DNA of 64,000 nucleotides from a virus (IMGVR_UViG_3300022747_000017); one strand, 5' to 3'; numbered from the stretch's first letter, positions 11,759 through 32,421 are shown. Notes: generated from the sequence alone by a model not told the origin. A program made the numbers and translations.

Positions 11759-12040
11759 ATGGACTATCTACTACGCAATTCGTTAACAGAATCCGACATT
11801 GAGTTTCTGAATGAAACAACAATGGATTTTGAAATCGTTAACACCGACTGGTTCGCGCCCAAGGAAGGGTACGATAGTGGATGGTGCGATGGAGTAACAG
11901 GGCATCGTCTTATCACCCATCAAAATCGTGTAGTGTTCAGGAATGTTACTCCTGCACAGTACACATATCTTGAACTTCGATATCGTGAACGCCTAAATGA
12001 GTTGACAGACGGCCTTAAAGGCATATATAATATTACATAG
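11759..12040 (+). CDS. Hypothetical protein (distant cassette-like YLELRY motif)
   Basis: 93-aa ORF. Confidence 0.65.
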   Translation: MDYLLRNSLTESDIEFLNETTMDFEIVNTDWFAPKEGYDSGWCDGVTGHRLITHQNRVVFRNVTPAQYTYLELRYRERLNELTDGLKGIYNIT

Positions 12041-12062
12041 ACATTAACAAAGGAGAAATCAA

Positions 12063-12641: not shown

Positions 12642-12810
12642 GGTTCGTATATTTGTACCACATAAGGACTATGCATCTATATGGTCCTTTATCAGGGAAA
12701 ACAAAGTCAAACACTGGCCAATTGAACGAGGGTGGCAAGGTTACTTCTTTACAATTGAAGATGGGCCTGCTGCCACATTTTTATCACTCAAATACATACA
12801 CAATGAATAA
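12628..12810 (+). CDS. Small protein, LRW-cassette-like C-terminus (FLSLKY)
   Basis: YFFTIEDGPAATFLSLKY ending. Confidence 0.6.
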   Translation: MTTNKVRIFVPHKDYASIWSFIRENKVKHWPIERGWQGYFFTIEDGPAATFLSLKYIHNE

Positions 12811-13309
12811 AATTACAATTTATCTAGACATGGACGATGTCACAGCAGACTTTAAGGCCTATGCCAACAAGACTCTGGGCAAAAAGACCACAGACGAACG
12901 CTGGCCGCACGAGGACTGGATTCGTCTACGTGATAATCCTCATCTGTACAGGGACTTGGATAAAACTCCTGAAGCAGATGCACTGGTTGAATGCTGCCGT
13001 TATCTACGTACTAAACACGGATTCGATCTAAAGTTTCTAACTGCGGTGCCCCGGGGCAATGACTTTCATTGGGCATTCTACGACAAAGTAATGTGGGCTC
13101 AACAACACTTTCCCGACATTCCTGTTATGTTTGGACCGTTTAGTCATGATAAGCATGTGCACTGCTCGGATGGCGACATCTTAATTGATGACCGCACCAG
13201 CAACTGTGAAGAATGGCGCAAAGCCGGTGGCTTCGCAGTTCAACATCGCGGAGACTTGTCAAAGACTCTTAAAGAGTTAATGGACATATTGGACGAACAC
13301 TTCCAATAA
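12803..13309 (+). CDS. 5'(3')-deoxyribonucleotidase, HAD family
   Basis: IYLDMDDV motif I, FLTA, ILIDDR. Confidence 0.85.
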   Translation: MNKITIYLDMDDVTADFKAYANKTLGKKTTDERWPHEDWIRLRDNPHLYRDLDKTPEADALVECCRYLRTKHGFDLKFLTAVPRGNDFHWAFYDKVMWAQQHFPDIPVMFGPFSHDKHVHCSDGDILIDDRTSNCEEWRKAGGFAVQHRGDLSKTLKELMDILDEHFQ

Positions 13310-13481
13310 AATGTACCATAATAGTTGCTATTGTAGAACCCGTGGTGTTACAATTCAGCTACAGAGAATACAAGTGCTTTGCACTCGGGCAATTGGTAAA
13401 ATACGTTATTGACTTGCCTTGAACTGTATACTACAATTGATATAGCTGTAATTCAACTCAGCAATACTTAGGAGATTTTAA

Positions 13482-13748
13482 ATGTTTGATCTAAATACTA
13501 AAACTGGTAAGGCCTATAAGGCATTGGTTATCGACGGTGAGTCACTTACACAATCTGAAGCTAAAAAGCGTTTTGGCATCGGCAGCTTGAGCGCAGAAGC
13601 AACTCGCTTGCGTCAAGCAGGCTTTGCAATTTATGCAAACCAACGCAAGGCCAAGAATGGTGTTCATGTTACTGAATACCGCCATGGTAAGGCAAGCCGT
13701 AAGATCATCGCTGCTGGCTACAAAGCCATGGCAATGGGCTTGGCATAA
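13482..13748 (+). CDS. Small basic, probable winged-helix DNA-binding protein
   Basis: LTQSEAKKRFGIGSLSAEATRLRQAGF; strong promoter(s), AGGAG RBS and own terminator. Confidence 0.5.
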   Translation: MFDLNTKTGKAYKALVIDGESLTQSEAKKRFGIGSLSAEATRLRQAGFAIYANQRKAKNGVHVTEYRHGKASRKIIAAGYKAMAMGLA

Positions 13749-13776
13749 TTTTTTGGTTATATTTCTTTTAAAAGCT

Positions 13777-13796
13777 AAGGCTCTTCGGAGCCTTTT
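13777..13796 (+). terminator. Rho-independent terminator
   Basis: AAGGCTC-TTCG-GAGCCTTTT, same as 1-20. Confidence 0.85.
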
Positions 13797-13834
13797 CCTT
13801 TGACTTGTTAGCAGGTATAACGTATAATAATGGT

Positions 13835-14680
13835 ATGAGAGTAAACGTAATTTCCGACCTTCACCTAGAGTTTTCAGACTTAGAACTGCCGGGTGGAGAA
13901 GTATTAATATTGTCAGGTGACGTATGCGAAGTCAAGCACGTTAAAGCCGAGTACGATGTAAACAACATACTTAATGAAGGCGGCCCCAGCACAGGCAACT
14001 TCAAACGTATGGATCGTTGGACTCGTTTCTTCCACGAAGAGTGCAGCAAGTACGAAAAGGTATTTTACGTAGCAGGCAACCATGAGCACTACGGATATAC
14101 GTTTCATAAAACAGTGCCACACCTAAAAGACATGCTGCCCAAGAACATTACTGTTTTGGAAAAAGAAGCGTGTGAATACAATGGAGTATTGTTTCTAGGC
14201 GGTACGTTATGGACTGACATGAATAACTTTGATCAGTTGACACTGTATCATATGAAAGGCATGATGAATGACTATCGTCAAGTTACCATGTTAAATGAAG
14301 CCAAGAGTGTGTATCACAGACTGGTTCCTGAGCATACAACTACCGAACACGTTAAAACAAAAGAACTGTTTAAATTTTACCTAGCTGAAAACAGAAGTAA
14401 ACAAAATTTACCAGTTGTTGTGTTGACACATCATGCTCCAAGCAAGTTGAGTACACATCCACACTATGCAGATGACACCATTATGAATGGTGCATACAGC
14501 AGCGATCTCAGCGAGTTTATTCTGGATAATCCTGAGATTCGAGTATGGACACATGGTCATACACATCATACGTTTGACTATAACATTGGAGACACTCGTA
14601 TCATTTGCAACCCACGTGGCTATGCAGGACACGAGCAACGCTCAAACGAATTCGATCCAACCTATGGATTTGATATTTAA
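13835..14680 (+). CDS. Calcineurin-like metallophosphoesterase
   Basis: ISDLHLE, LSGD, VAGNHEHY, THHAP, HGHTH; promoter TTGACT-N17-TATAAT with ATG 6 nt later. Confidence 0.9.
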   Translation: MRVNVISDLHLEFSDLELPGGEVLILSGDVCEVKHVKAEYDVNNILNEGGPSTGNFKRMDRWTRFFHEECSKYEKVFYVAGNHEHYGYTFHKTVPHLKDMLPKNITVLEKEACEYNGVLFLGGTLWTDMNNFDQLTLYHMKGMMNDYRQVTMLNEAKSVYHRLVPEHTTTEHVKTKELFKFYLAENRSKQNLPVVVLTHHAPSKLSTHPHYADDTIMNGAYSSDLSEFILDNPEIRVWTHGHTHHTFDYNIGDTRIICNPRGYAGHEQRSNEFDPTYGFDI

Positions 14681-14722
14681 CTCGGGGTGAGTTATCTTAT
14701 TTTAAACTTTAAGGAAAATTAA

Positions 14723-15271
14723 ATGAAGAAAATTTTAGCAATTATGGCTCTGGCCCTTTCTGGTTCTGCTTTTGCAGTATCCTATGTTTCAGTTGACGTT
14801 GAAAACGTTTCAGGACGCCAAGGTACAGGCGATAGTACAGCACAATATATTCGTGCTGGAAAAGAAATCAGTGGAATCCAATATGGCTTACAAGGCCGTA
14901 CATCAAAGTTGCGAGACGGCACAGGCAGCTTTAGTTCAGTTGAAGTAACTGGTGCCAGCAATGCAGTTTCGGCATTTGGTGTCACTCCGTTTGTTGGTGC
15001 AGGCCATGACAATGGTAAAAATGGCGGACAAGGCTACAACTATGGCTTAGTTGGTGCAACAACTGGTGCTAAGATTGGCCCAGGTTTCTTGTTAGCTGGA
15101 GTTAAAACTCGCGTTGGCAGCACCGAGACTGTCAACACCAAGCAAACATTGGTATTCGGTACATATTCTATCCCAGTTACCAAGGACGTTTCCTTTAACT
15201 TGAATGCAAGCCGCTCAAGCCAAGACATTAAGGAAAAAGCAGTTGGCGTAGGCTTAGGCTTTAATTTCTAA
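14723..15271 (+). CDS. Outer-membrane beta-barrel protein
   Basis: Signal peptide MKKILAIMALALSGSAFA, alternating amphipathic strands, C-terminal GVGLGFNF. Confidence 0.75.
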   Translation: MKKILAIMALALSGSAFAVSYVSVDVENVSGRQGTGDSTAQYIRAGKEISGIQYGLQGRTSKLRDGTGSFSSVEVTGASNAVSAFGVTPFVGAGHDNGKNGGQGYNYGLVGATTGAKIGPGFLLAGVKTRVGSTETVNTKQTLVFGTYSIPVTKDVSFNLNASRSSQDIKEKAVGVGLGFNF

Positions 15272-15275
15272 ACTG

Positions 15276-15320
15276 TTGACTTTAGTTAACAAATTGCCTA
15301 TACTACGGTATAGGCTTTTT
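15276..15320 (+). terminator. Overlapping terminator and promoter
   Basis: GCCTATAC-TACG-GTATAGGC-TTTTT hairpin contains TATACT 17 nt after TTGACT. Confidence 0.6.
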
Positions 15321-15338
15321 TATGGCCAAGGAGATAAT

Positions 15339-15728
15339 ATGGCTACGTGGATAGGAAATACTTCAAATAATATCACAGTGAATGCAATTAGCGGAATATC
15401 GGGAATAGCACCATATGGTCCCGGCACCAGTAACAGTGCAACATGGACTAGTACTGCCGGGGGATATACTATTAATCCCACAACACATTCTACCAAGATT
15501 CACATCAATGAGAATGGAATTAGCATGGCAGAAGGCACAGACCTAATGATGGGCGCAACCAGTCTTAAAGACACATTAGCTGGTATTGAATCAAGATTAG
15601 CAATGCTAAAACCCAGTCCCGAAATCGAAGCAGAGTGGGAGGAATTAAAACGCCTCGGAGACGAATACCGTGCTTTGGAAAAAGAGATTCAGGACAAGAT
15701 GAAGTCGTGGGATATTTTGAAGAAATAA
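15339..15728 (+). CDS. Hypothetical protein with C-terminal coiled coil
   Basis: GGAG RBS; 129 aa. Confidence 0.7.
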   Translation: MATWIGNTSNNITVNAISGISGIAPYGPGTSNSATWTSTAGGYTINPTTHSTKIHINENGISMAEGTDLMMGATSLKDTLAGIESRLAMLKPSPEIEAEWEELKRLGDEYRALEKEIQDKMKSWDILKK

Positions 15729-17072
15729 CTTTAAGTTGTAAATTGCATTTCTGTTATAATACATACATATGAATAACACGGTATCCTTAAAGGGTGTAAA
15801 TCGGGCTCTTCTAGCGGCAACATGGTGTAACAACAACGTACCAACAGATGAATGGACAATGCAATTGTCCGCTACAATTTTTGCAGACGGAGATTATAAT
15901 TTTACATTTAGTAATCCAGATCATGCCAGTATGTTTGCTTTACGATGGCGATAATAAAACTAGTAGTACATGAGTTCACTATGGGTGATGTGGACGATCC
16001 CGAACTGTATGCAGCACAGCCACTATGGGAATGGCAACAAAGTGAAATAGGACAGTGGGTAATGGCCAATGCAGTAGAAACCCCGCAGTGGGGCCGATGC
16101 AATGACTATCATACATATCAACTTAAATTTAGAGTAACTGCACGTCTACAAGAACAAGATGCAACATTTTTCAAGTTAAAGTATGATAACTCTGTCAAAA
16201 AGTGAATGGGTTACAGTAAGTAACAAGCTCAAATCGGATTGGGCACACAAACCCAGTGTACTAATGATTCGAGAAGTTATGAAACGTGAACTAAGGTTTA
16301 CTACCCGAGAACATCGTTTTTGGAATCCGGGCATGTCCAACTATACCGAACTCATGTACTTGGATTTTTACGACGAACCGTCGGAGACCATGTTTAGACT
16401 TAGGTATCTATGATACCACGTGAAAGGTTTATGGTAGCCGAGATTCCCGGAGCAGGTGCCGAAATTTTGGTCATACTAATAGACTATCATTTCTGGTCAG
16501 ACAACATAGGTGAATTAATTGAGTGGTGCAGTCATCGTAATGCAACTACAGAGGGCATGACAGTTGTGCTCGGGGATGACTTAACGTTAACGGAATTCCT
16601 ATTGAGGTGGGCATGAAAGAATTTGATGGACACACATATGAAACTGTAGCAGACTGGCATCCTGTTATAATTCGTAACAAAGGTAATATGATGGATGATA
16701 TCATATTAAGGCCAGCGTGGCTCAGTGAGCATTGTCCCGATGCACACATGGATTACGATGCGTGGGTCTATGCCGACGATAATCTAATGGACAGCAACCA
16801 TCGCAGCATTTACTTCTTTCGCGATCCCCAAGTTGCGGTCATGTTTGCACTGCGTTGGTCATGAAATACAAACTTGAACGACTCAGGCGTAGGGTTAGAG
16901 TCAAGCATAATGTAGATGGATGGTCCCATGCACTAACCGAAGACGAAGCTGTAGAAATTACCAATTTGGTAACACAGCGCGAGCTCGGTACACGGATTGC
17001 ATACGATATCTGGCGCATGAAAGACAATGCTTGCGTTACATTGTTTATCCTGCACTGGGGTAATCAGTAAAA

Positions 17073-17118
17073 AGTACTACATTTAATAAAATCCAAAATG
17101 TGCTACAATTAGCACATG
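17073..17118 (+). promoter_or_regulatory. Internal array promoter, leaderless
   Basis: AGTACTACATTT...TGCTACAAT-N6-ATG; near-homologous promoter at 29104-29148. Confidence 0.6.
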
Positions 17119-18265
17119 AGTTATCGAATTGAACAAATCTGTCAGTCAAGATACTTTGAGCTGACTAAAAATCGCCATCGTAAAAGTAACAAGGTACACT
17201 ATCGTATCAATTTGATGGATTGGCCGTGGACAGGCATGCAGTCCTTTCAAGACCAAGTACGTGATACTGTAGATCCGACTCGTACCAAAAGTGGCCAATT
17301 TGGCTATCATTGGAAGTTTCGTAGTCGCAACGAAGCAGAGATGATGTACATGACTTTGATGTTGAAATTTGCATGACTTACGATGTTTGTATCAGCATTA
17401 AACGTGATCAGGTTCTCCCTGATGTTTTTACTTGGCTGCTGCATCAAGATTTATCCCAACACAAACACTGGGATTTCACTAAGCCAGACTATTTCAAAGA
17501 TGATTGGGATTACACATTTAAATTTGTGCGCGAAGCCGATGCTGCCTTGTTTGCGTTAAGGTGGGCATGATGACCGTAACTTATAAAACGAACCCGGGCT
17601 TTCCTGGTATTAACTTTCCCGTGTTGCATCGTGTGGTTTACGCACACACCATCGATGGTGTTCCGGCACAATGGCAAATCAGCTACAAGGATTATATAGT
17701 CAATTTGTGGTTAAAAGAAAACTGTCAGCATCCTTACTACCACAGCCCCGGGTATCTTAGAGAAAAGTTTATTGAGTTTGAAGACGATCAAGAGGCAATG
17801 CTATTTGCATTGAAGTGGGCATGAGTCATTTACCGCGCAATGGTCAATACGAGCTGTTTACCTATGCCGGGCGAACTCGTTGCTTTGACGACACAGACGA
17901 TGTTTGTGTTAAAGGATCACATGAAATGTTTGAGTGGTTACGTAAACAGCCCATTGAATTGTGCAAGCCAATGGACAATTCAAATACTGCGTTTTACCTT
18001 ACCCCTGAAATGTATCTAATTTGGAAGCTAAAATGGGCATGATTACACCCGGCGTTTTTGACACTTGGCATGTAATGACCGACCATCACCGTGCAGAAGT
18101 TCTAAGAGAAATCATCAGATGGTGCAAGGACAACGTTGCACTAAACGATCCTGCTGTGTCCTATCACTGCCGTAAGTGGGCATTTACATACGAGCGTTTT
18201 CCACGGCACACAAACTTTGTTTTTGATAGAGAGGCAGATGCATTAATTTTTGCACTGAAATGGGC

Positions 18266-18700
18266 ATGAAAAATAAAACAATTACCGTTGATCTCGAAAC
18301 ATGGGACGCCTTGACGCCAACGTTATTAAGTAATACTACTGGTGGGATCCATCCTGGTCAAATGATGATTTTCACTGCGGGCCGCCAAACTGGCAAGAGC
18401 AGCTTGTACATGAAAATGTTGAAAAATAAACTCTACAGTACCAACTTATGTAAAGAAATCTTTTTACCAATGCACCCCACGCCAAAGCCAAAGTACAAAT
18501 TCACACGTGCCAAGTGGTATGTTGCAGACTTGTGGAACTCAGACCACATAATGGACGAAGTTCGAGAGTGGTGTGTAGAACAGTTTGGGCCGCGAGTTCT
18601 TAATCCCGATGCATGGACACGTTGGATTAATCATATGAACAGTACATTTAGATTTCGTGATGAAGCAGACTATGTGTTGTTTATGCTGAAGTGGCTATAA
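18266..18700 (+). CDS. LRW cassette with N-terminal P-loop-like fragment
   Basis: GGIHPGQMMIFTAGRQTGKS (Walker A pattern) fused to PKYKFTRAKWY...FMLKWL. Confidence 0.7.
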   Translation: MKNKTITVDLETWDALTPTLLSNTTGGIHPGQMMIFTAGRQTGKSSLYMKMLKNKLYSTNLCKEIFLPMHPTPKPKYKFTRAKWYVADLWNSDHIMDEVREWCVEQFGPRVLNPDAWTRWINHMNSTFRFRDEADYVLFMLKWL

Positions 18701-21700
18701 TGCACATACATTCATATCTAATGACAAGTGCTTACCAGCCCAATGGTCCGCGTTGGATGGCTGCATTTACTAACAAAAACATAGATATTACTCAAGAGAT
18801 TCAACAGTGGTGCTATAATGCATTTGGTCCCCCGGGATTCAAAGTTAACACAGACGAAATACGTTGGACCGACAGTGCTGTACGCGGAGAAATCATATTT
18901 GGGCGAGAAGAAGATTTAATGCTTTTTATGTTAAAATGGCAAACATGACCAACATTCTAATAGACGCCCAAAACAACACACGCTTAGTTGCCATATTAAA
19001 GTGGTGCAACGATAAAGTGGGAGATTATTATCTCCACAATGGTCTATGGGACTGGGACTTTCAAAAATTTGAATCCGGCGATACGTCAAATTGGGGAATC
19101 GTTGTTAAGTTTAAAGACAAGAAACACGCTACCATGTTTGCATTGGTATGGACATGAATGATCAAGCATTAACTGCAATTCAACACGCTTGGGCTGAATG
19201 GCCCGCAATCAAGCACACAGTAGTTGACTTTGGATTCAAGGACTGGTGCAAGCGTGTGCATGGATTTGAGTATCGCCACTTCAACAGTGGGCAGGCAGTT
19301 ATTACCACTGTACTTGATGAGAAAAAGTATGCGTGGTTCTTGTTGAGGTGGTCATAATGTGGTATCCTGTAGTAACTGTTGCATGTCGTAATATCATTGA
19401 AGTGTCAGAGCGTCAGGAATGGGCAGAAGAGCATGGCATGATGCTGCTTAATCGCACTTGGGAAGTCATTGATAAACGACAGTATGTTACATTCAGCTTT
19501 CGACATGAAAAAGATGCTACAATGTTTGCATTGAGGTGGGCATGATTAAAGAAAACCGCGCAGTGCAAATTAATTCGATCTACCATACGATCCACGAACG
19601 CCTGCGGGAGTTCGTGGCAGAGACTCCTTGCCTGTACGTAAATGACGCAGATGCAGTTAACGTGGTGTGTCATTATTTCCCCTGCTGGCAGTATAATGGT
19701 GCTGCCCCGTTTGAAGAAGTCATGCTGTGGTGTGAAGAACATTTTGGGCGCGACTGGATTTGGAGATTTGAAACAATCTTTTTTAAGCACGAACGTGATC
19801 GTGCAGTATTCTTGTTGAGGTGGTCATGATTAAAGTAAACGTGGACGCAAAGTCTGATGACAGATTGACACAACAGTTGTATTGGTGTTTTGAAACTTTT
19901 GGTGACGATGCTCGCACATGGGATTGGGGTTTTGCTAAGTTTGACCGACGTTCCGGTACTAAAGAGCAATATCTTGAATTTAATCAGTGGGCTGTATATT
20001 TTAAGTTCGATGATGATGCCAAGGCATCTGCATTTTTATTGAGGTGGTCATGACAGTTAAACTTGAATTAAAACCAAGGACAAAGCGACCTTATTGGATT
20101 GATGTTTGTCCTCCACATAATTGGAGTAAGTCTGATGCATGGCATTGGTGCATTGCAAACTTTGGACACAGAAACAAAAAGTACGACAATCCTCGTTGGA
20201 CTGCAAAAATGAAATATAGTTGGGATGGTGAATTCAAGTTTCTCAACGAACAAGATGCTATGCTGTTTATGTTGAGGTGGAGTTGATGTATTACACAGTG
20301 GCTTTGTTTGATCCCAACGATCCCACAGAGGGGTCTCCACGTTGGTGGAAAAACTTCATACGTGCCAATCCTCCAGGAACCCGATTCAACATCAGTGTCA
20401 CTAACGATCGATTGATGGAATACTCAGCAAACTATGTAGTCACAGGCGGTCAGGGCGGTGACGTGCAGCGATATCTTGACTTTTATGATCAGCGAGCTTA
20501 TACTTGGTTCTTGTTGAGGTGGGCATGACAACTCTTTACATTTCTGAGAATTACGATCAAAGTCCGCAGGTGTACAAAAACTTCTATAAAGCAGTGATAG
20601 AACCCAAGTTGTTGGGCGGACGTGGTAAATTACTTAGTAGCAGTGTGTTTCTTGACGAGTATAATGCACGTTGGGATAACCCATCTAAGAGCATTGTGTT
20701 TGATACTGAGCAAGATTTAACTTACTTTATGTTGAAGTGGTCATGACCTATGTTAGAGACGGCAAGTGGTATGTGTTTAAGTATCAAGTATACCCTGGAG
20801 CAAAACGCCGATGGTGTATTCAAACTTTTGGCAGCACTACCTGGGCCGATACTTGGTACTGTTATGACGGCAATTTCTTTTTCGAAAATGAACAAGATGC
20901 TACAATGTTTACATTGAGGTGGGCATGATGATACCCGAGTATCGTAATCGAGTAGCTGTTGATGATATATTTGCCGACGATGGCGGCGAGCCAACATGGA
21001 CGAAGGTGATTATTCCAGAAGGAAGATATAACCAGAGTTCCAAAGAACGCCTCCATAGTGTAAGAACATGGTGTAGTGAGAATACTACACAGAAGTGGAG
21101 TAGTTATATTAGGGTGTTTTTCTTTGAGAATGAAAAAGATGCTACAATATTTACATTGAGGTGGGCATGATTAGAGTAATGATTTCCGACCATGGTAATG
21201 AGTCACCGTACATGTGGTGGTACAAGTTTATTGCGAGTGTCAAGCACGGCAAGTATGGCCAAACTGTGGAAGAGCGCATAGATGTTCTTAACACTGAACT
21301 AATGAATTGGTCTGCACAATTATGGCAAAATGAACCAGTACCTCATGAACTGGGTACTACTATCAGCAAATATCGTAACGTATATCTTGACTTTTATGAC
21401 GAGCAGGCGCATACTTGGTTTGTATTGAGGTGGGCATGATTGTAAAAGAGTATTATCAAAATATCAACTGTAACCAACCCAAGGACTACTTTGAGCGTTG
21501 GTATGCAGATGTGTGGGCACGCCGAATTGGAACAAAGATCGCACAGCCCGGAGTGTTGGCCCGTATTCTTGATGAAGAACTTGAATTGGTCGGTGCCACT
21601 TATGAAAATACACAGCGTGGGTATAGATTTGAAGTAACGTTCAATGACGAGCACGACTATACCATGTTTGTATTGAGGTGGTCATAATGATTGATTGGTT

Positions 21701-23464
21701 ACAAGAACCCACAGCACCAACTGCCGAAGAACAGGCCTTTGACAACATGTTTCATTACTTTCTTTTCAATAAAACTGGCGCCAAGAATGTAGCTGAATTC
21801 TATAGACAGAATGGAATAAAGGTCAAAGATAGTCAGGTAGTTTTTGACTCACCACAACATAGAACAATGTTCTTATTGAGGTGGTCATGAGTAAATTTAT
21901 TATTAATCCTAGTTACAAACGCATCGGAATTGACTTTAATTTTAATGCCGATGAATGGGATGAAATTTACCATTGGTGCGAGGATAAACCTGAATACGAA
22001 ACATATTCAACTGGCATATACTATCAGACTGAGTCAGATTTAACAGCATTTTTGTTGAGGTGGTCATGAATATCCAAGTAGAGCATCTTATAGACGGTTA
22101 CTACATTGCCGAGCTTGACGAGCCACCATATGGGCTTGGCAGTGACATGTATTACTCCAAGGATTTCCCGGACACAGACAATTGGTGTACTGAAACTTTT
22201 GGCTCGCAAGACATGTGGGGCGAAACTCCAGTGTCTGGATGGAAGCGCATGCGTAACAAATATTACTTTGTTACAGAATCTGCATGTGAATTGTTTGTGC
22301 TGAGGTGGTCATGAAACTACGTGTCGACATCCGCCCATACTTCCAGAAGATTGCAGATTACTATTGGGACAACATTGGGCATACCATACACCACACTGAG
22401 TCGCACATAACCATTTGGGATTGGTTACAACGCGACTATTCTGCGGTTAAGGTTGGACCAGTGGGTAGTAAACCCTCGCTATGGGTTTCATTCCCAGATG
22501 AACAACACATGACTATGTTTATGTTGAGATGGGCATGATTGAACTAGATGTAGTTAATTCCGGTTATGAGTGGGAGCCATGGTGGGAAAATTTTCATAAC
22601 TATTATTCTGAGCAAGGGTATAATATGAATTCCAATGAAGAAATCGCCCGGGCATTGTCTGAATGGAATGCCATTGACCCGGACCCCGAGTCCACTAAGT
22701 TCTATTTTGAAAACGAGCATGACTGCTTGTTATTCATGTTAAGGTGGGTATAATGGCAACAGAAGCGTGGATATTCATTGACGGTCAAAAGGTTCGTATT
22801 CCATTCACTCCGAACGAAGCTCCGGAGTTTGGCTGGTACTTGGGTGCAGAGTATAAGAGTGCCTTATATTGGGATGAACATGATTTTGAATCAATCAATA
22901 CATGGTGCAGACAGACTTTTGATCCGCACACATATAAAATGTTTATGAGAAGTGTGTGGTTCCTGCGTGAGCAAGATGCCTTGTTGTGCAAGTTGAGGTG
23001 GACGTAATGGCCGTTTCGATGACCAAGAAAATATTGAAAAAGTTTCCTGCAACTAAATGGGAGTTTGAATACAATCCTGCCCGTGAGCGTTGGGAAACTT
23101 ATCGCACGCCAATGGATTGGCCGTTTGGTCTGTATGGATGGTTATGGGCAATTGGTAACCCACTTAGTGATCTAGCAGGTACAGAATCCAGTGGGTGGGA
23201 CTATCATGGTGGTTGGATTTTCATCTATGATGAGAAGTTGGTTACAGCGTTTTTGTTGAGGTGGTCATGAAGATAACATTCAGACTACGTGGCGATGGTG
23301 TAGTTAACAGAACATTCACTAGAGCATGGGATCACGCCCTTGAGAAATACGTAAGGATTCATCCAGTAACCACATCATACGAGTGGAATTTGATTTGGTC
23401 CACTACACATCCCGGAAAATTGATTGGACCGCAACGGCGTGGGACGTACCAAGTTGAGATGGAA

Positions 23465-23887
23465 GAAAAAGATTACATGATGTTTTTGTTGAGGTGGTCA
23501 TGACACACCACCATAACCCCAACCTAGCAGCCAATGTAACTTACACTGGCCAGCAGATACTCATGCCCATGATCAAACAACTTACGCCCGCATTACTGGC
23601 ACATAGTATCTTGGGAGTACAACCCATGACGGGCCCGGTGGGTGAAATCTTTACTATGAAGGCTAACTATGGATACCAACCCAAATACAAGTTCAGCCGT
23701 GCCAAGTGGTATGAAGCAGACCATCGTTACGATGATTATGATGAAGTCATAGCATGGTGTACTGAACAGTTTGGGCCACGGCCTCGACGACCGGATGCAT
23801 GGACACGCTGGTGTGACATACACATTGACCGTATCAGATTCCGCGATGAAAAAGATTACATGATGTTTTTGTTGAGGTGGTCATGAC
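23465..23887 (+). repeat. 40-nt exact direct repeat at two consecutive cassette junctions
   Basis: GAAAAAGATTACATGATGTTTTTGTTGAGGTGGTCATGAC at 23465-23504 and 23848-23887. Confidence 0.9.
23500..23886 (+). CDS. LRW cassette with N-terminal major-capsid-protein-like fragment
   Basis: ILMPMIKQLTPALLAHSILGVQPMTGPVGEIFTMKANY resembles the conserved GVQPMTGP segment of T4 gp23-family capsid proteins. Confidence 0.75.
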   Translation: MTHHHNPNLAANVTYTGQQILMPMIKQLTPALLAHSILGVQPMTGPVGEIFTMKANYGYQPKYKFSRAKWYEADHRYDDYDEVIAWCTEQFGPRPRRPDAWTRWCDIHIDRIRFRDEKDYMMFLLRWS

Positions 23888-25363
23888 GTTCTTTCGTAAA
23901 GTAAAGATTCCCGAAGCATACGCCAGAGTGGAGTGGTGTCGTGCCACATTAGGCAAAGACGTCACTGGCGGCAACTGGTGGAGACATCGCGGACATCTGT
24001 ACTTTAAAGACGAACAGTGTTACACTATGTATGTGCTAAAATGGAGTTAAAGTTCTAATGGAATGCACTGAATATAGTCAAATTCGTAATGTAAAACATC
24101 TTATGAGAGTATTAAACAAGAAATATTGGCCCTATCACGTGACAGTCAACAACAACACCGGAGAACTGGAACGTTGGTGCTACGAAAACCTCAAGAGTGC
24201 AAACTGGCGCAACGTTGGTCAGTACTTTGCGTTTAAGCGTGGTGCAGATGCTACTATGTTTTCATTGAAGTGGTCATGAAACAGTACGGCATAGTCACTG
24301 AGCGTTGGCATTGGGAGAAGAAGTGGGAAGTTAAGTTGTGGCTTGTTGAAAACTTCGGAGTCAATGGCGACCGGTGGGGTGAAGAATTTGACTATGGACT
24401 TGAGAACTTGTGGATGAACGAAGATGTTTATTCTGCATACCTACTGAAATGGGGAACATAATGGTTTTCTGCGAAAAGGACCCTTACTACAAAAACTCAA
24501 ATGAATATTTTCGTAACAACATTGATCACTTTAAAACAGCCTATTGGACATGGATGATTGATAACTATAAAACTGTTCTATTAGACAAACAGGGCAGTTT
24601 TAACTCAGGCCCTGACCAACACTGGGCATTCAATACAGAAGAAGATAGAACATTTTTTATGCTGAAGTGGGGATAATGGAACAAGAACTCATTGAAATAA
24701 CTGTAGGAGCAAACTATAATAAACGTGCTGAGATATTTGCTTGGGCCAGAGAAACATTTGGAGACCAAGTGGAGCAGCATGCAGATTTTCCTATATTGTA
24801 CTTTCGCAACAAAGCAGATGCAGAATTTTTTATGTTGAGGTGGTCATGAACTCAAAGCAACGAAGACAAGACAGACGCAAATGGCAATACCATGTTTTAG
24901 TTTCTCCTGAAACACGTTACGCCAATGGGTACGATACCATGTGGGACTGGTGTCTTAAGAACTTTGGTAACAGCAAAAAGCAAAAGCACCACTGGAGAGA
25001 AAAGTGGGGACATATTGGCACACACTGGCAATTTACGTCAGCCGAAAGTGCTGTGTTGTTTACACTTACATGGTCATGACAAAATATACAAGAGATACTC
25101 TAATGAAAAAGGCACGAATTAGCGACGAGCAACTAAATGCAATATACAAGAAGTGGATCTCTCCTCAGTTACAAACTGGGTACCGCAGCCTTTACACTGA
25201 CGATATTAATCGTGTGAGTTTTCGCTATGGGCCCGGAAAGCAATTTGAGGACTATGTCTGGTCATGCGGGGGACGTATTGGAAAAGAGCATGGCAAGCGA
25301 TATGCTGAATTCTTTGAAGAAGAGGATTTAATTATGTTTACACTGAAACATATGTAATCTTGT

Positions 25364-25573
25364 ATGGAAATCACACAACGAATACATAATGGTTGCGATT
25401 GCTACCCATGGACTAAAACGTTTGCATTGTGGCCAGTTAAAACAATTGGCGGAAGATATGTGTGGCTACGTACAGTTTATAAGCAACGTTTTTGGGTAGT
25501 ATGGGGCATTAGCTTTCACATGGAGCCACACGTAGAATACGCAGAATTATTTGAAATATTAGCAAATGACTAA
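25364..25573 (+). CDS. Small protein, W-x-x-x-FA-W-x-PV family (copy 1)
   Basis: PWTKTFALWPVKTIGGRYVWLRTVY. Confidence 0.65.
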   Translation: MEITQRIHNGCDCYPWTKTFALWPVKTIGGRYVWLRTVYKQRFWVVWGISFHMEPHVEYAELFEILAND

Positions 25574-25856
25574 CAAAGTATTAGATTGGCGTCATTTGTT
25601 CTTGCCAATTAGACATGCCAAAGACGACTTTGAAGCAGAACATAACCGCAGTTATTTAGATCCTGATGCAAAAACATTCATTGAATGGCTAGATGTAAAC
25701 TATGGTATTACATTGTTCTTGTCTGACGATTTTCAGCATTTAGAAGACAGACTGGAAATCTCAGATGAGAAAAAGTATTTGCTTTTTATGCTAAAATACT
25801 CTACATGAACACCATTAACTTACTGGGGTGTCCTTAAGGACATCAATCCTGTTTAC

Positions 25857-26081
25857 ATGCAATTCATTGTATCAACACCATCGTCTATTAAAAAAGGCAA
25901 CACTGAGTTTCCGGAACTTCCGTGGACTGCGTGGTTTGCATGGTATCCCGTTAAAGTGCACGAACAGTACAAATGGCTAACCACAGTTGTACGGCGTCCT
26001 AATAACCGTGTGGGAGTTACTCACAAGGATTTTATGAAGTGGGAATATGGAGACATGTTTGATTTGCTAAAGGTGCAGTAA
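25857..26081 (+). CDS. Small protein, FAWxPV family (copy 2)
   Basis: PWTAWFAWYPVKV...KWLTTVVRR...EYGDMFDLLK. Confidence 0.65.
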   Translation: MQFIVSTPSSIKKGNTEFPELPWTAWFAWYPVKVHEQYKWLTTVVRRPNNRVGVTHKDFMKWEYGDMFDLLKVQ

Positions 26082-27205
26082 TGCAGGTGATCAAAACATG
26101 GATTGTACACCAGTGGTTACCTGATGACGCAGAGTGGTTTGTCCAACAGGGCATTCGTTACCACATTTCATCAAAACGCATACCTATTCATTCCGCAGGA
26201 GGATCACTACACTACGCCCAAGGACCCACAGAACTACGTGTGCAAACTAATACCGAACATCAAGAAACAGTTCTGCGTTTAAAGTTTGAACCTGGGTTGA
26301 CTCTTATGCAAATAGCAACAGTACCTGCTGAATGGGCATGATTGAATGGATCAAAGACCGCTGGCTTACTTGGCGTACAGGCAAGCCCAAGGCCCAACGA
26401 GAGTGGGAAGCATGGTACGAGGTTAATGTCGTCTATCGTGCTAGCACTATCAACAATATGTTCATGCACTTTAAGCATGTCATTATAGTTAGTCCCAACA
26501 AATTCTTTGATCTTTGTGAGCCATTTGCCTATGTACCATGCGAAGATGCTCGGCAATACTTCTGGCCTGCTCGTCCACTAGGTGAGAATGCCGTTTGGAG
26601 ATTTGAACGAGTTATGTGGAACCAATGGCAAAAGTGTTGGGACATTAATGGGCTAGGCGATAGAGATAAAGTGTTTGTGGCCACCAATAATGACGACGAT
26701 GCTATAATGATTTCATTGAAATACGCATAATGATGGAATACGAAATTGTTTTAAACACCGAGAAACAGCATGTCTATCGTGAGAGGTACGGTATAATGGC
26801 AGCGTTTGCTTGGGCCCTGGATAACTTTGGTTTACCGGGCCAAGCGGGTAATGACCATTGGATTATGACCGACCTAGGCCGGTTTAAATTTGCAAGTAAA
26901 GCAGATGCTACAATGTTTGCTTTAGTATGGGTATAAAAGGTATATGTAATGGAACTGTTTTATGGTGGTGGGGGAAATCAATTTCCTGACTTTAGATACA
27001 AGGTGCGTATCAAGCGAGGCTCGCCCGAAGTTAATGAGATGATGAAGTGGTGCGACGATTACCCAACTGGTGATAAGGGCTATTTTAAACGCTACTACAT
27101 TGACTGGCGTGGTGGCGAAAAGAAATACGGCGACAGTGAATATACCATATTCCAATTTGAATGGGAAGAAGCTGCTATAATGTTTGCATTGAAGTTTGGA
27201 GCACA

Positions 27206-27562
27206 ATGATGATGAGTGACACTGAATTTGCTGATTACCAAAGTCGTTACAATGACGACCCAGTTGTTCAACGGCTTTGCAAAATGATTTTCAATGATCA
27301 TCGCATTGAAGATTTAGAATACGAACTTGACCAGGCCAAGGACGAACTTGGCTATTGCGAACGTGAGCTAAAAGAAGCCCGTTACGAAATCAAGCAGCTA
27401 GAATCCCGTACAATCGAGGACATGGCAGCAGATTTAGTTAATCAGGTAGCAGCCGCAGAGAGACGTAGCCAAATGTATCGTGAAGAGAAAGATAACATAC
27501 TGGCCAAGAACAAAGAACTGCAAGAAAAAATCAACGTATGGACAGTAATGGAAAGAACATAG
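27206..27562 (+). CDS. Coiled-coil hypothetical protein inside the array
   Basis: Heptad-rich, lacks the LRW ending. Confidence 0.65.
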   Translation: MMMSDTEFADYQSRYNDDPVVQRLCKMIFNDHRIEDLEYELDQAKDELGYCERELKEARYEIKQLESRTIEDMAADLVNQVAAAERRSQMYREEKDNILAKNKELQEKINVWTVMERT

Positions 27563-29948
27563 CCCTGGGCGAAGGGCGTGTATATGGCGCAAGGTATCTA
27601 ACTGTGCGTCCGGAAATCTGTTGGGATCTTGAAAGCGGTGATTGGGGCAATTTAGAAACTTGGCCTAAAATGATTAAATGGTGTGGTGAAACCTTTGGAC
27701 CAACGCCCGAGGACGGCGTATGGACACCCAATGCACGGTGGTATGTCAATGATTCAAAGTTTTGGTTTCGCAGTCAACTAGATCTTACGTTGTTTCTTTT
27801 AATGTGGGCATGAGACCTGTAAAATATTGGTGTACAATTCCTGTCAGTGTACCATGGCGTAGCACCGGGCACTTTAGAGACCTGCGTATATGGTTGTTAG
27901 ACAATGTACCAAATCATGGTGACTATGAGTTTGCTGGAGTGGACTCGGATCTTCTCCCAAATAAAGACAATCGTGTATACTACTTTGCACACGAAGAAGA
28001 TGCTATAATGTTCTCATTGAGGTGGTCATGATACGTTTGGACATTATTAAAGGCTATGGACCTATTCACGTGTGGAACAAATTTATTGCACATCTGCAAA
28101 ATCAATTGGGAGACTTTGCAGTAATGTACACCGATGTTAATACCGCACTAGCCGAGTATCGTGCAGTTTATCACATGGAAGAGGTGGGCAACATATTTGA
28201 AAGTGATGTTCTACATTGGGTTGATTTCGAAGATGAAGAATTGTACGCTTGGTTTATGTTGAGGTGGTCATGACTAAAATCTATGCAGACATCTATCCCT
28301 ACTTCAAGAAGGTTGCTAACCACTATTGGGATGATCTATACAAGTCCAATATTAGTGTCTGGGATTGGCTTGGCCGTGAGTACGGTATTAGCCACACCTT
28401 TGGCAGTGCAGCCAGCCAGCAGATAGTGGTGTCGTTTCCTGATGAGAAAACACTCAATTGGTTCGTACTGAGGTGGTCATGATTGAAATTAAAATCAGCA
28501 AGAAACTTCGTAATGTATACGGAGAAAGTGGTACACAGGTCGCTTGGAAGTGGTGCTTGGATAACTTCGGGCCACCAGAACCAAACGGCAAGCGTTGGGC
28601 ATGGGACACTATGCGTACATTTTGGTTTCATAAAGAAGAAGATGCTACACTGTTTGCACTGAGGTGGATATGAGTAACACAGCATATCCTTATCGCGTAC
28701 GCTACCAACGTACTAGTCAATGGTATCCTAACTATGCAACCTACGGCGATGGCGATTGGATGAAAATTAGTCACTGGTGTGACCACTGCATCGGTAAGGG
28801 CAAGTGGGATTACTATTGGAGTGAATTTGTATTTGAACGCGAAGAAGACTACATGTTATTTAAATTGAAATGGTTGTGATATGATACGATGGGACGAAGA
28901 AACAAATCTATATTTACTGACTCTAGAAGAGTACAATCAATTGCCCGATGGCGTTGAACTTACTAGTATAGGTAACAACCGTTTGATCAAGGGCCGTGAC
29001 GTCATTGACACGGATCAACGTTGGGGATACCTTGCATACGGAATAGTTGATCCATGGAATCACCCGCTCAAAGATTTGTTTCTGTTGTTTAAACTAAAAC
29101 AATAGTACTACATTTTAAAAATTCAAAAAGTGTTACAATACAGCTATGACAACACAAATTAAACTTGATCGCAAACATCACGATCGTCTCGAAGAGATTG
29201 AAACTTGGGCCCGAGAAAGCATTGGGCTCGGCAGTCGTCGTTTTGTTAAAAATACCTGGATGGGCATTGAGGATTGGTATTACTTTGAAGAACGGGTAGA
29301 GCATGTTCCCGATCTTTCCGAAGAAGAAAAGACTGAAGGTGTAGTCCAGCACGTTGATGCAAGCGACGACGAGGACAGCGATTTGATCTTTGTATTTCGT
29401 CGCGAAAGCGATGCTATGATGTTTAGTCTTCGGTGGCAATGACCACCACTGTGTCATTTGGTAAACGCAAATACCATTTGCAAAACGAAATGATACGATG
29501 GTGCGAAGAAGCGTTTGGTATGAATCCAACCTACACTAATTGGGTGTTTGGCGAACCAGTGGACTGGACAGATCTAGGAAATTGGTGCGTGGCAAGTATG
29601 TTTGGTGAAACTCATTTTTATTTTAAGAATGACGCGGAGGCTAGTGCATTTATTCTAAGGTGGAAATAATGTCAACAGTTTGGAATGGTCCTTATAAACC
29701 AAACAATCCACGCACCATACATGGCGCACAAAAACGTGGCTGGCACGTAGTCCAAGTGCCACGCAATTATATGGATCGTTACGATATCACCTGGCTTGGC
29801 ATTGGACTGTGGGCATCAAGACACAGTAATGGTTACTTTCTTGATAATTTTTTACTTAGGCAATTTGCCTTCGAGCGGGACGAAGATGCAAGCAAATTCA
29901 TCTTTCAATTTGCACTTTGAAATAAGTGTGTTTTTACAAAAGGCACAT

Positions 29949-30143
29949 ATGGCAACAAAAGACAAAAGTCATATTACCTACAGCAATTGGGAACCATGGT
30001 TTGCATGGCACCCCGTAACAACAGTCAATGGCAATCGCATTTGGCTCAAAACAGTCTACAGACGATATCGTATGATATTTGGCATAGAAGACGACATGGG
30101 CTATTATTATGGCGACGAGTTTGACGTCCTTAAGACTACTTGA
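29949..30143 (+). CDS. Small protein, FAWxPV family (copy 3)
   Basis: NWEPWFAWHPVTT...IWLKTVYRR...YYGDEFDVLK. Confidence 0.65.
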   Translation: MATKDKSHITYSNWEPWFAWHPVTTVNGNRIWLKTVYRRYRMIFGIEDDMGYYYGDEFDVLKTT

Positions 30144-30174
30144 CATAGAATTGTATTAAATATACAATAGGATT

Positions 30175-30846
30175 ATGAAAGTCTACATCTCTAAATATCG
30201 TTACCATTGGACCAGTCCATACACTATTCTCAAGGCCATTTGCTTCTGGGAAAAAGATGATGACGTCTTTTACAATCACGAAGGGAAACCCGGGCACAAA
30301 TACACCAAGTGGGTTGAGTTTTTAAATCCAATCTGTGGCGCTATTATGCGTTTTCTAGACATTGTGCACCCAAAGATCGACTATGTAAAGATTGATAGAT
30401 GGGACACATGGGGCATGAATACCACATTGGGCATGATTGCATTGCCCATGCTCAAACAATTGCGGCAGCACAAACAGGGTGCGCCACTTGTTGCAGACGA
30501 GGATGTACCTGTAGAATTACGCAGCACATCCGCACCAGCTAGAGCAAATGAGTGGGACACAGATGACAATCACTTCAAGCGTTGGGATTGGGTCCTAGAC
30601 GAAATGATTTTTGCTTTTGAGCATACTCAAGACGACAGTTGGGAAGATAACTATCGCACAGGCGAATCCGACTGGAAATCCGAACCATGCGAATGGGACG
30701 AAAATGGCAAAGTTAAGATGTATAAAATGATTGATGGACCTAATCATACATACAAGTACGACTACGAAGGTGCCAAGCTAGTGCATGATCGTATTCAGCG
30801 TGGCTTTGAACTGTTTGGAAAGTATTATCAGAACCTCTGGGATTAA
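30175..30846 (+). CDS. Hypothetical phage protein
   Basis: 223 aa; promoter TTGACA-N17-TACAAT with ATG 6 nt later. Confidence 0.8.
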   Translation: MKVYISKYRYHWTSPYTILKAICFWEKDDDVFYNHEGKPGHKYTKWVEFLNPICGAIMRFLDIVHPKIDYVKIDRWDTWGMNTTLGMIALPMLKQLRQHKQGAPLVADEDVPVELRSTSAPARANEWDTDDNHFKRWDWVLDEMIFAFEHTQDDSWEDNYRTGESDWKSEPCEWDENGKVKMYKMIDGPNHTYKYDYEGAKLVHDRIQRGFELFGKYYQNLWD

Positions 30847-30847
30847 T

Positions 30848-31240
30848 ATGGACTTTGTTGCACTTCTTTCTGAGTTTGTGGGATTTTTATTTGAAATCCT
30901 AATGTGGATTATTTTCTGGTTTATCCTGTTTAGACTAGCGGACCGTTTTGTGTCAAACAAAATCAACTCTGCCGAAAAGGATGAACTCATTAACTATGTT
31001 GCAAATAGACTACATCGCATCAAGCAAGAAAAGCATGGCGAAGTCTATTACTGGTTTGATGCAGACACTGATGCCTTCTTAGGGCAAGGTAAGACTGACG
31101 ATGAAGTAAAAGAGCATCTCAAACAGCGTTTTAAAGGGCACGTATTCCTGTTAGATGATGACCGTGCACTTGCGGGCCCAGATTTAAAATTGACCCCAAT
31201 TAAAGAGCTAAAAATGCTCGACAAACACACAATCGCTTAA
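30848..31240 (+). CDS. Membrane-anchored hypothetical protein
   Basis: N-terminal transmembrane segment. Confidence 0.65.
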   Translation: MDFVALLSEFVGFLFEILMWIIFWFILFRLADRFVSNKINSAEKDELINYVANRLHRIKQEKHGEVYYWFDADTDAFLGQGKTDDEVKEHLKQRFKGHVFLLDDDRALAGPDLKLTPIKELKMLDKHTIA

Positions 31241-31260
31241 TTTTTTGCTATAATGTCCAT

Positions 31261-31653
31261 ATGACAATGCACCTAGCACATCCTTCACTTAGCTTGACTG
31301 GCAAAAAGAAGGGCAAAATCAAATTCAAGTCCGCAGAAGCAAAAGCAGCACACGAACGTCTCAATGACGAATGGCGTGCTATCAAAGAACGACACGGAGT
31401 CGAAGAGCATGAACGCAAGCGCCAACGTGCAATGACAGCAGAGCCGTTGACCTATAAGTTGTCTGCTCCTCCGGGTCGAGGCGCAACTGCACATATTCCC
31501 AGCCGTGACACAGGCGGTAATGCTACATTAGCGGCACCAAAAGTCTACACAGGCACTAAAGTAAAAGGCATTGCTACCATGCACAAGTCAAATGCTGTAC
31601 CTGTGTTTAGTGACGAAGAAGCTGTGGAAATCAGCCGTATGCGCCGTGGGTGA
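31261..31653 (+). CDS. Basic hypothetical phage protein
   Basis: 130 aa, leaderless promoter TATAAT-N6-ATG. Confidence 0.75.
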   Translation: MTMHLAHPSLSLTGKKKGKIKFKSAEAKAAHERLNDEWRAIKERHGVEEHERKRQRAMTAEPLTYKLSAPPGRGATAHIPSRDTGGNATLAAPKVYTGTKVKGIATMHKSNAVPVFSDEEAVEISRMRRG

Positions 31654-31900
31654 TTACTACTTTGAACTTGCTGATTGTGTAGTAGACCACTACAGTGGCA
31701 AATACTTTACAGTAACAAACAAAGACATTCTCGAACAGTTGGGTAGCAAAGACCTGATGCTGGTCCAGAACAGTGAACGAGTGTGGTGTGAAGAAGGTGC
31801 TGGGGTTCGTTATGTCAAGCATAGATACGGGAATATGTTTGCACCCGTTGATTTAAAAGAATTCATGTGGATAAAACTTAAAGCAAAGGAAATAAAATGA
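31646..31900 (+). CDS. Small protein, paralog of 32423-32716
   Basis: SERVW..G..GVR.VK ... FMWIKLKAKEI. Confidence 0.6.
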   Translation: MGDYYFELADCVVDHYSGKYFTVTNKDILEQLGSKDLMLVQNSERVWCEEGAGVRYVKHRYGNMFAPVDLKEFMWIKLKAKEIK

Positions 31901-32421
31901 AAACAACTAAACAATGGCTAGCAGAAGTCAAAGCAGATCCTGCAAAATTAACACAGTGGCTTGAGCGCCAATATATCGGAGAAGCACTTGCTGCCGACCG
32001 TATCAAGACCCTGGCTGCAACCAAACAAAATTCTCGACACGGTAAGCTACTTGACCGCATTGCCGCAGACGAATTTAAGCATGCCAGTTGGGTTGCCAAG
32101 TTGTTAGTGGATCGCGGTATTGCTATTCCTACACCCACAATGGAAGACACTCGTTACTGGGAACCTATCTTAGATAACTTGCACACCTTTGAAGAAATTG
32201 CAGGTGCAGGACATCATGCAGAAGTCATGCGATTAATGCGTATCACTGAATTGGCCAACGATGTTGAAATCGATGCAGATATCCGTCAAGTATTCAAACA
32301 GATTCTGCCCGACGAACAGTTTCATGCTAAAGCATTTGAAGCAATGAGCACCAAAGATGCCATTGACTCAACTCGCGAATTGCACAATATGGGACTCGAA
32401 ATGTTGGGATTAGAGGTCTAA
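31897..32421 (+). CDS. Ferritin-like di-iron protein
   Basis: Paired E...DExxH motifs: GEALAA / DEFKH and AEVMR / DEQFH. Confidence 0.75.
   Translation: MKTTKQWLAEVKADPAKLTQWLERQYIGEALAADRIKTLAATKQNSRHGKLLDRIAADEFKHASWVAKLLVDRGIAIPTPTMEDTRYWEPILDNLHTFEEIAGAGHHAEVMRLMRITELANDVEIDADIRQVFKQILPDEQFHAKAFEAMSTKDAIDSTRELHNMGLEMLGLEV

Follow-up and report, generated by a model that had tools for sequence, protein, structure and literature searches.

Results

An array of small genes encodes one protein family

The DNA analysed here (hereafter the window) is a 64,000-nucleotide (nt) stretch from a virus (IMGVR_UViG_3300022747_000017), and it carries a 14-kb array of small head-to-tail genes, most of which encode members of one family of small proteins ending in a shared F-x-L-[RK]-W element. 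A mechanical gene chain places 59 genes on the plus strand between 15769 and 29920, with a coding density of 0.997 across the array. With a hidden Markov model (HMM) of the family, 47 window open reading frames (ORFs) score E <= 0.01 and some 7 more are marginal; every one of them is on the plus strand and lies inside the array, and the minus strand of the window has no member. All ~54 member ORFs are intact, with a median length of 75 amino acids (aa; range 49-146).

A strict version of the C-terminal tail, defined as [FLMIVY]-x-L-[RK]-W with 0-2 further residues before the stop codon and scored in ORFs of at least 40 aa, is present in 39 of the 336 plus-strand ORFs of the window, every one within 15760-29669, and in 0 of the 416 minus-strand ORFs; a looser tail pattern matches 50 array genes. 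The 58 junctions between array genes comprise 30 ATGA overlaps, 11 TAATG/TGATG overlaps, 8 other overlaps, and 9 gaps, 5 of which exceed 15 nt. An initial annotation of the window had described ~55 head-to-tail mini-genes, mostly of 55-100 aa, with ATGA/TAATG overlaps between them and a PYFxKxAxxYWD pair at 22311 and 28270. Gene and member counts, lengths, and overlaps (41 of the 58 junctions being of the ATGA or TAATG/TGATG type) bear out this description, and the pair is confirmed (Table 1). Two outliers with similar endings that it had listed at 11759 and 12628 find no support as members in the family HMM (E >= 5 or no match) and were rejected.

The conserved tail is predicted to be part of a compact domain

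Alignment of 54 window members reveals a common core of ~55 aa, consisting of a helix with the pattern W-[C]-x-E-x-F-G, a tryptophan loop, an x-F-x-F strand, and the terminal E-x-D-A-x-x-F-x-L-[RK]-W element; the N-termini are the most variable part. Specifically, residues W25, C26, W40, F50, F59, L61, and W63 are each at least 90% conserved across the window members and 86 metagenomic homologs. The initial annotation had proposed a common ending on divergent N-terminal parts: the ending is indeed shared, but sharing is not limited to it and extends over the ~55-aa core.

An AlphaFold2 model of a compact 64-aa member, computed with the family alignment, predicts one domain (mean predicted local distance difference test score, pLDDT, 86; predicted template modelling score 0.69) with a strand at residues 2-5, a helix at 18-30, strands at 40-43 and 47-50, and a helix at 53-63. 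The model indicates that each member is a single compact beta-alpha-beta-beta-alpha domain of 55-65 aa, in which the F-x-L-[RK]-W segment forms the second of the two helices. The motif is also kept internally in natural tandem fusions of the family (e.g. P0001, P0029, P0134, P0144, P0146), indicating that a free C-terminus is not needed.

Database searches returned nothing with a name, in line with the initial annotation, which had recognised no named system of this architecture. The core has no match in Pfam-A or PHROGs v4, whether searched with 10 window members or with all 108 members of alignment A2; the sole matches among members are a Gp23 N-terminal fragment in fusion members and chance-level singles. 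The family profile finds nothing below E 0.5 among PDB sequences, Foldseek of the model finds no match in the PDB at E <= 0.001, and Foldseek against AFDB clusters and BFVD, together with the ESM Atlas, returns only unnamed viral proteins. A wide VIA-align comparison gives a best Z of 5.4 and retrieves generic two-layer alpha/beta sandwiches, including ferredoxin-like, ACT, and RRM domains at Z 4.8-5.4, a range that lies within the background for small alpha/beta sandwiches and that de novo designs also reach. In comparison with the ferredoxin-like fold, the model ends at the second helix and is without the sixth element.

The structural neighbours, together with an unusually aromatic-rich composition (Trp 5.8%, aromatics 17%), might point to small nucleic-acid-binding or regulatory proteins with a ferredoxin-, RRM-, or ACT-like fold, such as proteins that bind RNA and modulate translation or the stability of mRNA. 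We consider this assignment quite unlikely: the Z scores are no better than background, no ribonucleoprotein (RNP) motifs were found in members, half of the members are acidic (isoelectric point 4.1-10.0, median 5.9), and no family of this kind is matched in sequence. Members contain no transmembrane-like stretches and are probably soluble proteins.

The family is widespread in viral contigs and sparse among cultured phages

An exhaustive profile search identified 4,712 metagenomic clusters (50% identity) at E <= 0.001, nearly all of them small proteins in which the match runs to the C-terminus; a word-indexed protein search with alignment gave a single match, versus the 4,712 clusters of the exhaustive search. 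A probe from the KYKFSR subfamily retrieved 66 viral-contig loci from IMG/VR (locus span <=20 kb). These loci hold 610 HMM matches, 2-25 per locus, all on the probe strand, and several of the contigs are 214-364 kb long. The family is thus a large, phage-only protein family that is absent from curated resources and forms arrays in at least 66 viral contigs.

Among cultured phages, carriers are found only among jumbo phages related to PA5oct, Atu_ph07, and Phosso. Profile searches (E 4e-8 to 1e-3) detect 27 copies in Phosso, 4 in Atu_ph07, and 3 in PA5oct, and none in three other large phages (SCTP-2, Pelagibacter phage Mosig, and SP27). At the nucleotide level, the whole array has no megablast match in 50,697 phage records; tblastn of a typical member against phage records likewise finds none, and tblastn of a fusion member finds capsid genes only, through its N-terminal fragment. 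A literature search found no prior description of such arrays.

The homologs of PA5oct, Atu_ph07 (4 loci), and Phosso belong by profile to the same domain family as the window members, but they are few or lie in scattered small clusters, whereas the window has one contiguous block of ~50. The array is a lineage-specific paralog expansion, with 47 plus ~7 members versus ~25 in L010 (the closest relative, see below), 27 in Phosso, 4 in Atu_ph07, and 3 in PA5oct. In Sinorhizobium phage Phosso (PV764938.1, 469 kb), the 27 matches form small clusters near 3-14, 95-99, 113-117, 175, 370, and 408 kb. The existence of cultured carriers makes the function of the family directly testable.

Other products of the window, which comes from a large phage, are an ATP-dependent DNA ligase, the NAD-salvage proteins NadM-Nudix and NadV, a deoxyribonucleotidase, a metallophosphoesterase, and a radical SAM protein. 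A gp44-type clamp loader is also encoded; it is 49% identical to the clamp loader of Pseudomonas jumbo phage PA5oct and shares 38-42% identity with the loaders of Phosso, SCTP-2, and Atu_ph07. The window sequence occurs in freshwater metagenomes (public runs). The array phage is a freshwater jumbo phage of the PA5oct/Atu_ph07/Phosso clade, and about 7% of its 200-kb-plus genome is given to the family.

Expansions of this order have a precedent in Bacillus phage G, in which a ~35-copy zinc-ribbon expansion has been called unprecedented (Iyer et al. 2021, PMC7824862). In both cases one small domain is multiplied tens of times in a single jumbo-phage genome, with a presumed use in conflict or regulation. 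The array differs in having a different, undescribed alpha/beta domain, more copies (47-54), a contiguous 14-kb operon-like arrangement, a tail with a dual coding role (next section), and rapid reshuffling inside a fixed slot. With ~50 copies, it equals or exceeds the largest paralog expansions that have been reported for phages.

The tail codons carry a translation-initiation signal

The junctions between array genes are nearly stereotyped. In particular, the consensus TTG AGG TGG (T/G)CA TGA encodes Leu-Arg-Trp-Ser/Ala-stop and at the same time embeds a Shine-Dalgarno (SD)-like GAGGTGG located 5 nt upstream of an ATG that overlaps the stop codon. Codon choice at the tail departs sharply from that in the rest of the same genes: in the window, the tail arginine is encoded by AGG in 27 of 31 cases versus 7 of 203 elsewhere (Fisher p = 8e-25), and the tail leucine by TTG in 28 of 50 versus 49 of 197 elsewhere (p = 6e-5). 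The same bias is present in 530 distinct members from the 66 independent IMG/VR loci (AGG 262/369 at the tail versus 198/2,456 elsewhere), where ATGA overlaps account for 63% of junctions.

In the 66-locus set, AGG is used in 65% of members that have a start codon within 12 nt of the Trp codon and in 22% of those that do not (p = 6e-12), whereas L-[RK]-W is retained in members with and without a coupled downstream start. The fall in AGG usage without a coupled gene, combined with persistence of the motif, indicates that the motif is conserved at the protein level and that a ribosome-binding signal is overlaid in its codon choice. On this codon evidence, nucleotide-level constraint, namely the embedded SD and the ATGA start, accounts for much of the extreme conservation seen in the last four codons. 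The overlaps, the SD within the upstream coding sequence, and the downstream-dependent codon bias together identify the array as a predicted translationally coupled operon.

The array shares these features (41/58 such overlaps, GAGG-type SD 5 nt upstream) with phage operons that are coupled through ATGA/TAATG overlaps and an SD in the 3' end of the upstream gene. Unlike in ordinary coupled operons, the SD and start are fused in the array to a conserved L-R-W-S/A motif inherited with the domain, so that each cassette brings with it the initiation region of its successor. A second paralog family of small genes behaves alike. Its members end in (K/E)HFGVE(E)-stop, and their last codons, TTCGGAGTTGAAnATGA, embed a GGAG SD and an ATGA start; the window has copies of this family (Table 1), and L001, a related contig, has at least 10 (6247-14215). 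A tail with an embedded SD and start thus appears, from these codon patterns, to be a general design in the lineage.

The array provides a clean and statistically strong case of a protein motif and a translation-initiation signal that occupy the same 15 nucleotides and are inherited together, making each gene a plug-and-play cassette. It also provides a caution, in that conserved C-terminal tags of phage gene arrays can in part be footprints of ribosome-binding sites.

These results bear directly on the proposal of the initial annotation that variable, unrelated domains carry the F-x-L-[RK]-W helix as an added constant element for docking or targeting and would act as effectors delivered to one scaffold, membrane site, or virion. 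The tail is the most conserved stretch of the family, and some pairs carry near-identical tails on unrelated bodies, as a tag would predict. The proposal does not hold up against the remaining evidence, and we regard it as unlikely. The helix is modelled with confidence as an integral part of one small domain; conservation of aromatic and other core residues reaches W25, C26, W40, and F50, outside the tail; tandem fusion proteins hold the motif internally; and SD-driven codon selection accounts for the extreme conservation of the last codons at the nucleotide level. Delivery to the virion in particular finds no support, since the three PA5oct homologs (EST35_0247, EST35_0274, and EST35_0275) are annotated as hypothetical and are without an ESI-MS/MS (electrospray ionization with tandem mass spectrometry) virion note in the record, and delivery to a membrane is at odds with the lack of transmembrane-like stretches in members.

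A comparison with the internal proteins of phage T4 leads to a similar view. Some T4 internal proteins act against host defence, and the T4 capsid targeting sequence, which directs packaging, is N-terminal and is cleaved by the prohead protease. The array and the hypervariable T4 internal-protein locus each comprise small phage proteins that evolve fast and have a short conserved peptide in common. The conserved element of the array, unlike the T4 sequence, is C-terminal and part of the fold, and nothing indicates packaging; members have no T4-type N-terminal targeting peptide, their N-termini being the most variable part.

Promoter-like motifs precede gene blocks

Gene blocks open downstream of the few gaps, and at three block starts a TAYAAT box lies 6-8 nt before the first ATG (at 15755, 17104, and 29134; Table 1), preceded at two of them by TGTGC or GTGT. 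The 40 nt upstream of the 17104 and 29134 sites are closely similar. The second block is a run of ~40 genes that extends to ~25808 and is broken only by gaps of 6-7 nt at 24051-24057 and 25358-25363. The spacing suggests that block-first genes may be leaderless or near-leaderless and followed by SD-coupled genes. A motif consisting of an A-rich stretch, TGTGC, and TAYAAT recurs elsewhere in the window 6-8 nt before the ATG at 1528, 3019, and 31249, and also before the tRNA region at 11197. This recurrence implies that leaderless transcripts may be a general feature of the array phage.

Contigs from three metatranscriptomes (three studies) tile the array at uneven depth (in X3, 157 then 8 then 54), and the depth of DNA-run contigs over the array is flat (5-8.5). 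Over 12001-32000, the depth of the X3, X6, and X7 contigs peaks at 12-15.3 kb (nucleotidase, metallophosphoesterase, and a porin-like gene), is lower over 17.3-28 kb of the array, and rises again after ~28.3-29.3 kb, with DNA depth flat.

The array is reshuffled between related phages within a fixed slot

In L010, the closest relative, the array occupies the same slot as in the window, between orthologs of 15276 and 30175. The upstream flank consists of orthologs of 13482, 13805 (87% identical), 14723, and 15276, and the downstream flank of orthologs of 30175 and 30848. The slot holds ~25 members in 10.3 kb in L010 versus ~54 in 14.4 kb in the window. The first four array genes are collinear between the two and the remainder are scrambled, with identities of 38-85%; five members of L010 have no window counterpart, and ~30 members of the window have no L010 counterpart. 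The array of L001 follows the same reshuffled pattern, with orthologs 44-73% identical to those of the window. It abuts the DNA ligase, which is 69% identical between the two and lies directly downstream of the array in L001 (8572-9930) and 11 kb upstream of it in the window (3032-4351), indicating that the neighbourhood of the array has been rearranged between relatives. Both comparisons support the initial annotation's description of an expandable cassette library and show fast turnover.

The paralogs themselves are old. In three unsaturated ortholog pairs of the window and L001, the ratio of nonsynonymous to synonymous substitution rates (dN/dS) is 0.29-0.32, and the paralogs are judged from these ratios to be under purifying selection. 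How alike two paralog bodies are does not depend on how far apart their genes lie (Spearman -0.03), and in each of the two most similar pairs, 18260/23500 and 22311/28270, ~20 genes separate the partners. We considered recent tandem duplication as the origin of the array and rejected it on these two grounds.

Some tails are 84-91% nucleotide-identical on otherwise unrelated bodies. A 40-nt exact direct repeat, each copy of which includes a gene tail and junction, brackets exactly one cassette, that of the capsid-segment fusion described below (Table 1). One RNA-library contig joins 23464 to 23848, a joint that deletes exactly this cassette.

The turnover raises the alternative of a largely neutral or selfish genomic accordion, in which cassettes would multiply and shuffle at a conserved junction and most copies would have little or no function. 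Copy numbers ranging from 3 to ~54 among relatives, scrambled order, junction repeats of up to 40 nt, and the possible cassette-deletion variant all fit such a process. Selection on the genes argues otherwise, and we judge this alternative improbable: the ~54 ORFs are all intact with coupled starts and dN/dS is ~0.3, many orthologs have been kept at 60-85% identity across phages whose ligases are 69% identical, the paralogs are ancient and not recent duplicates, with similarity independent of array distance, and the family persists in 4,712 clusters.

Some members carry N-terminal extensions, one of them with a capsid-protein segment

One array member has an N-terminal extension of ~60 aa homologous to a segment of the T4 major capsid protein, gp23. 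The extension matches Pfam Gp23 (E 1.2e-12), and residues 13-63 of the member align to residues 88-137 of T4 gp23, including the GVQPM block (phmmer, E 2.6e-6). Conserved orthologs with the fusion number ~14 across independent contigs, and L001 and several metagenomic clusters have it as well; in the ESM Atlas, Gp23 is found in 13% of the members of a 113-member cluster. In a model of the 128-aa fusion member, the core has pLDDT 86-92 and the capsid-like part ~52, which suggests that the latter may be a flexible extension.

The Gol region of T4 gp23, which we take to be residues 93-122, falls in the aligned part of the protein. This region spans 29 residues within the first quarter of gp23, of which it is the most conserved part; it binds EF-Tu and activates the Lit protease (PMC3014915). 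The fusion carries the homologous segment, including the GVQPM block, but as a free segment of ~50 aa on an unrelated small domain and not as a capsid protein; the likeness to Gol is one of sequence. The fused segment corresponds to a part of the capsid that defence systems sense, and it provides a concrete counter-defence hypothesis.

The closest paralog of the capsid-segment fusion has an N-terminal extension of a different kind, with a Walker-A-like AGRQTGKS sequence that is also present in P0106. The matches of this fragment are weak (DnaB-type helicase, E 0.008-0.016; terminase, E 0.026-0.079; ABC ATPase, E 0.18), and any of these three could be its source.

The capsid segment could alternatively mean that members are morphogenesis helpers, which would bind proteins of the capsid or of packaging and serve as chaperones, regulators of assembly, or decoration proteins. 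The conservation of the fusion in ~14 orthologs and several metagenomic clusters and the ESM Atlas cluster hint at such a role. The segment is confined to one subfamily, however; the neighbours of the array are genes of nucleotide metabolism and NAD salvage and not those of a structural module; the PA5oct homologs are without a virion mass spectrometry note; and fifty paralogs are hard to square with a stoichiometric assembly role. We regard a morphogenesis role as very unlikely.

A further alternative is a presentation library, in which the mini-domain would display variable surfaces together with peptides copied from phage hallmark proteins, such as the Gol segment and the P-loop fragment. 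Host immune sensors that recognize these segments, or host factors that do so (EF-Tu, for example), would be occupied or blunted by the copies, and the self-contained tail, carrying SD and start, would permit shuffling, gain, and loss of cassettes without breaking expression. The fusions are compatible with this scheme, to which we assign a low probability.

Discussion

Two known kinds of organization, the paralog expansions of jumbo phages and operons with translational coupling, meet in the array on a domain family not previously described. The array is a lineage-specific, ~50-copy expansion of this phage-only domain in a fixed slot. We consider it probable that, as a whole, it is made up of self-contained coupled cassettes and serves as a repertoire of binders. 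In this model, the array would be expressed as a few very long operons, each block seemingly starting at an extended -10 box 6-8 nt before its first ATG. Later genes would be translated by coupling, the last codons of the preceding gene providing the SD-like GAGGTGG and the next ATG, and the F-x-L-[RK]-W helix is conserved as a protein element with the ribosome-binding signal overlaid on its codons. Old, diverged paralogs under purifying selection are gained, lost, and reshuffled between related phages, with the near-identical tails and junctions of 15-40 nt as likely crossover points.

At the protein level, a stable scaffold with a variable surface and variable N-terminal extensions could give each copy its own target, and the array would then constitute a repertoire of small soluble intracellular binders that act on host or phage proteins during infection. 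The more specific proposal that these binders are used in host takeover or counter-defence is tentative; we hold it to be possible, and more plausible than the other roles weighed above. No anti-defence family turned up in the Pfam, PHROG, and structure searches, which did not include a dedicated anti-defence HMM library.

Several observations weigh against the binder-repertoire interpretation or limit the steps on which it draws. The homologs of PA5oct lie among nucleotide-metabolism genes, outside the region that the paper on that phage defines as early, and a dN/dS of ~0.3 reflects purifying selection, not the diversifying selection that an arms-race effector library might show. The predicted fold matches only generic alpha/beta sandwiches and is uninformative on activity, and burial of the tail F, L, and W is deduced from how the motif is patterned together with a model that is compact and confident. 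With respect to expression, the putative promoters and leaderless starts are sequence motifs, and a generic sigma-70 scan gives no enrichment relative to shuffled sequence (48 versus 47.8); the uneven RNA depth is consistent with transcription, but is a contig-level measure, blind to starts, strand, and level. Finally, the 23464-23848 joint may be a real recombinant or an assembly artefact, the latter because the 40-nt repeat exceeds the assembler's 31-mer.

Coordinates and other genes of the interval

The features discussed above are collected in Table 1.

Table 1. Features of the array and of related genes in the window
Feature	Position	Strand	Description
Small-gene array	15769..29920	+	59 head-to-tail genes; 47 solid and ~7 degenerate members of one ~60-aa domain family
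Block-1 start	15755..15771	+	TATAAT box 8 nt before ATG 15769; putative promoter (sequence motif)
Block-2 start	17096..17118	+	Putative extended -10 (TGTGCTACAAT) 6 nt before ATG 17116
Block-3 start	29126..29148	+	GTGTTACAAT 6 nt before ATG 29146
Closest paralog of the capsid-segment fusion member	18260..18700	+	N-terminal extension with Walker-A-like AGRQTGKS
Consensus junction example	19814..19829	+	TTG AGG TGG TCA TGA; Leu-Arg-Trp-Ser-stop, GAGGTGG, and ATG of next gene
PYFxKxAxxYWD sub-pair	22311..22538 and 28270-28482	+	19 genes apart
40-nt exact direct repeat, copy 1	23465..23504	+	Gene tail and junction
Capsid-segment fusion member	23500..23886	+	~60-aa N-terminal extension homologous to T4 gp23
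40-nt exact direct repeat, copy 2	23848..23887	+	Pair brackets exactly one cassette
W-F-A-W-x-P-V...W-L-x-T-V family, three paralogs	25364-25573, 25857-26081, 29910-30143	+	Separate family, within or abutting the array
Coiled-coil-like interloper	27206..27562	+	118 aa; not a family member
Compact member used for structure model	28479..28673	+	64 aa; AlphaFold2
HFGVE-stop family, window copies	48178-48462, 48626-48886, 58697-58957, 60403-60576		

Five or six genes inside the array interval are not members of the family (25364, 25857, 26081, 27206, 28881, and perhaps 29669), and the W-F-A-W-x-P-V copy at 29910 likewise belongs to another family. Two of the three W-F-A-W-x-P-V paralogs flank a true family member (25566-25808). 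Orthologs of the W-F-A-W-x-P-V family are present in L001 (50% identity) and L010 (81%), and one copy searched against PHROGs gave no match.

Upstream of the array, one contig of the X3 metatranscriptome jumps from 12054 to 12162, leaving out 107 nt, and both positions coincide with loose ends in other runs, which suggests a replaced or variable population segment just upstream of the GTG-started gene at 12108.

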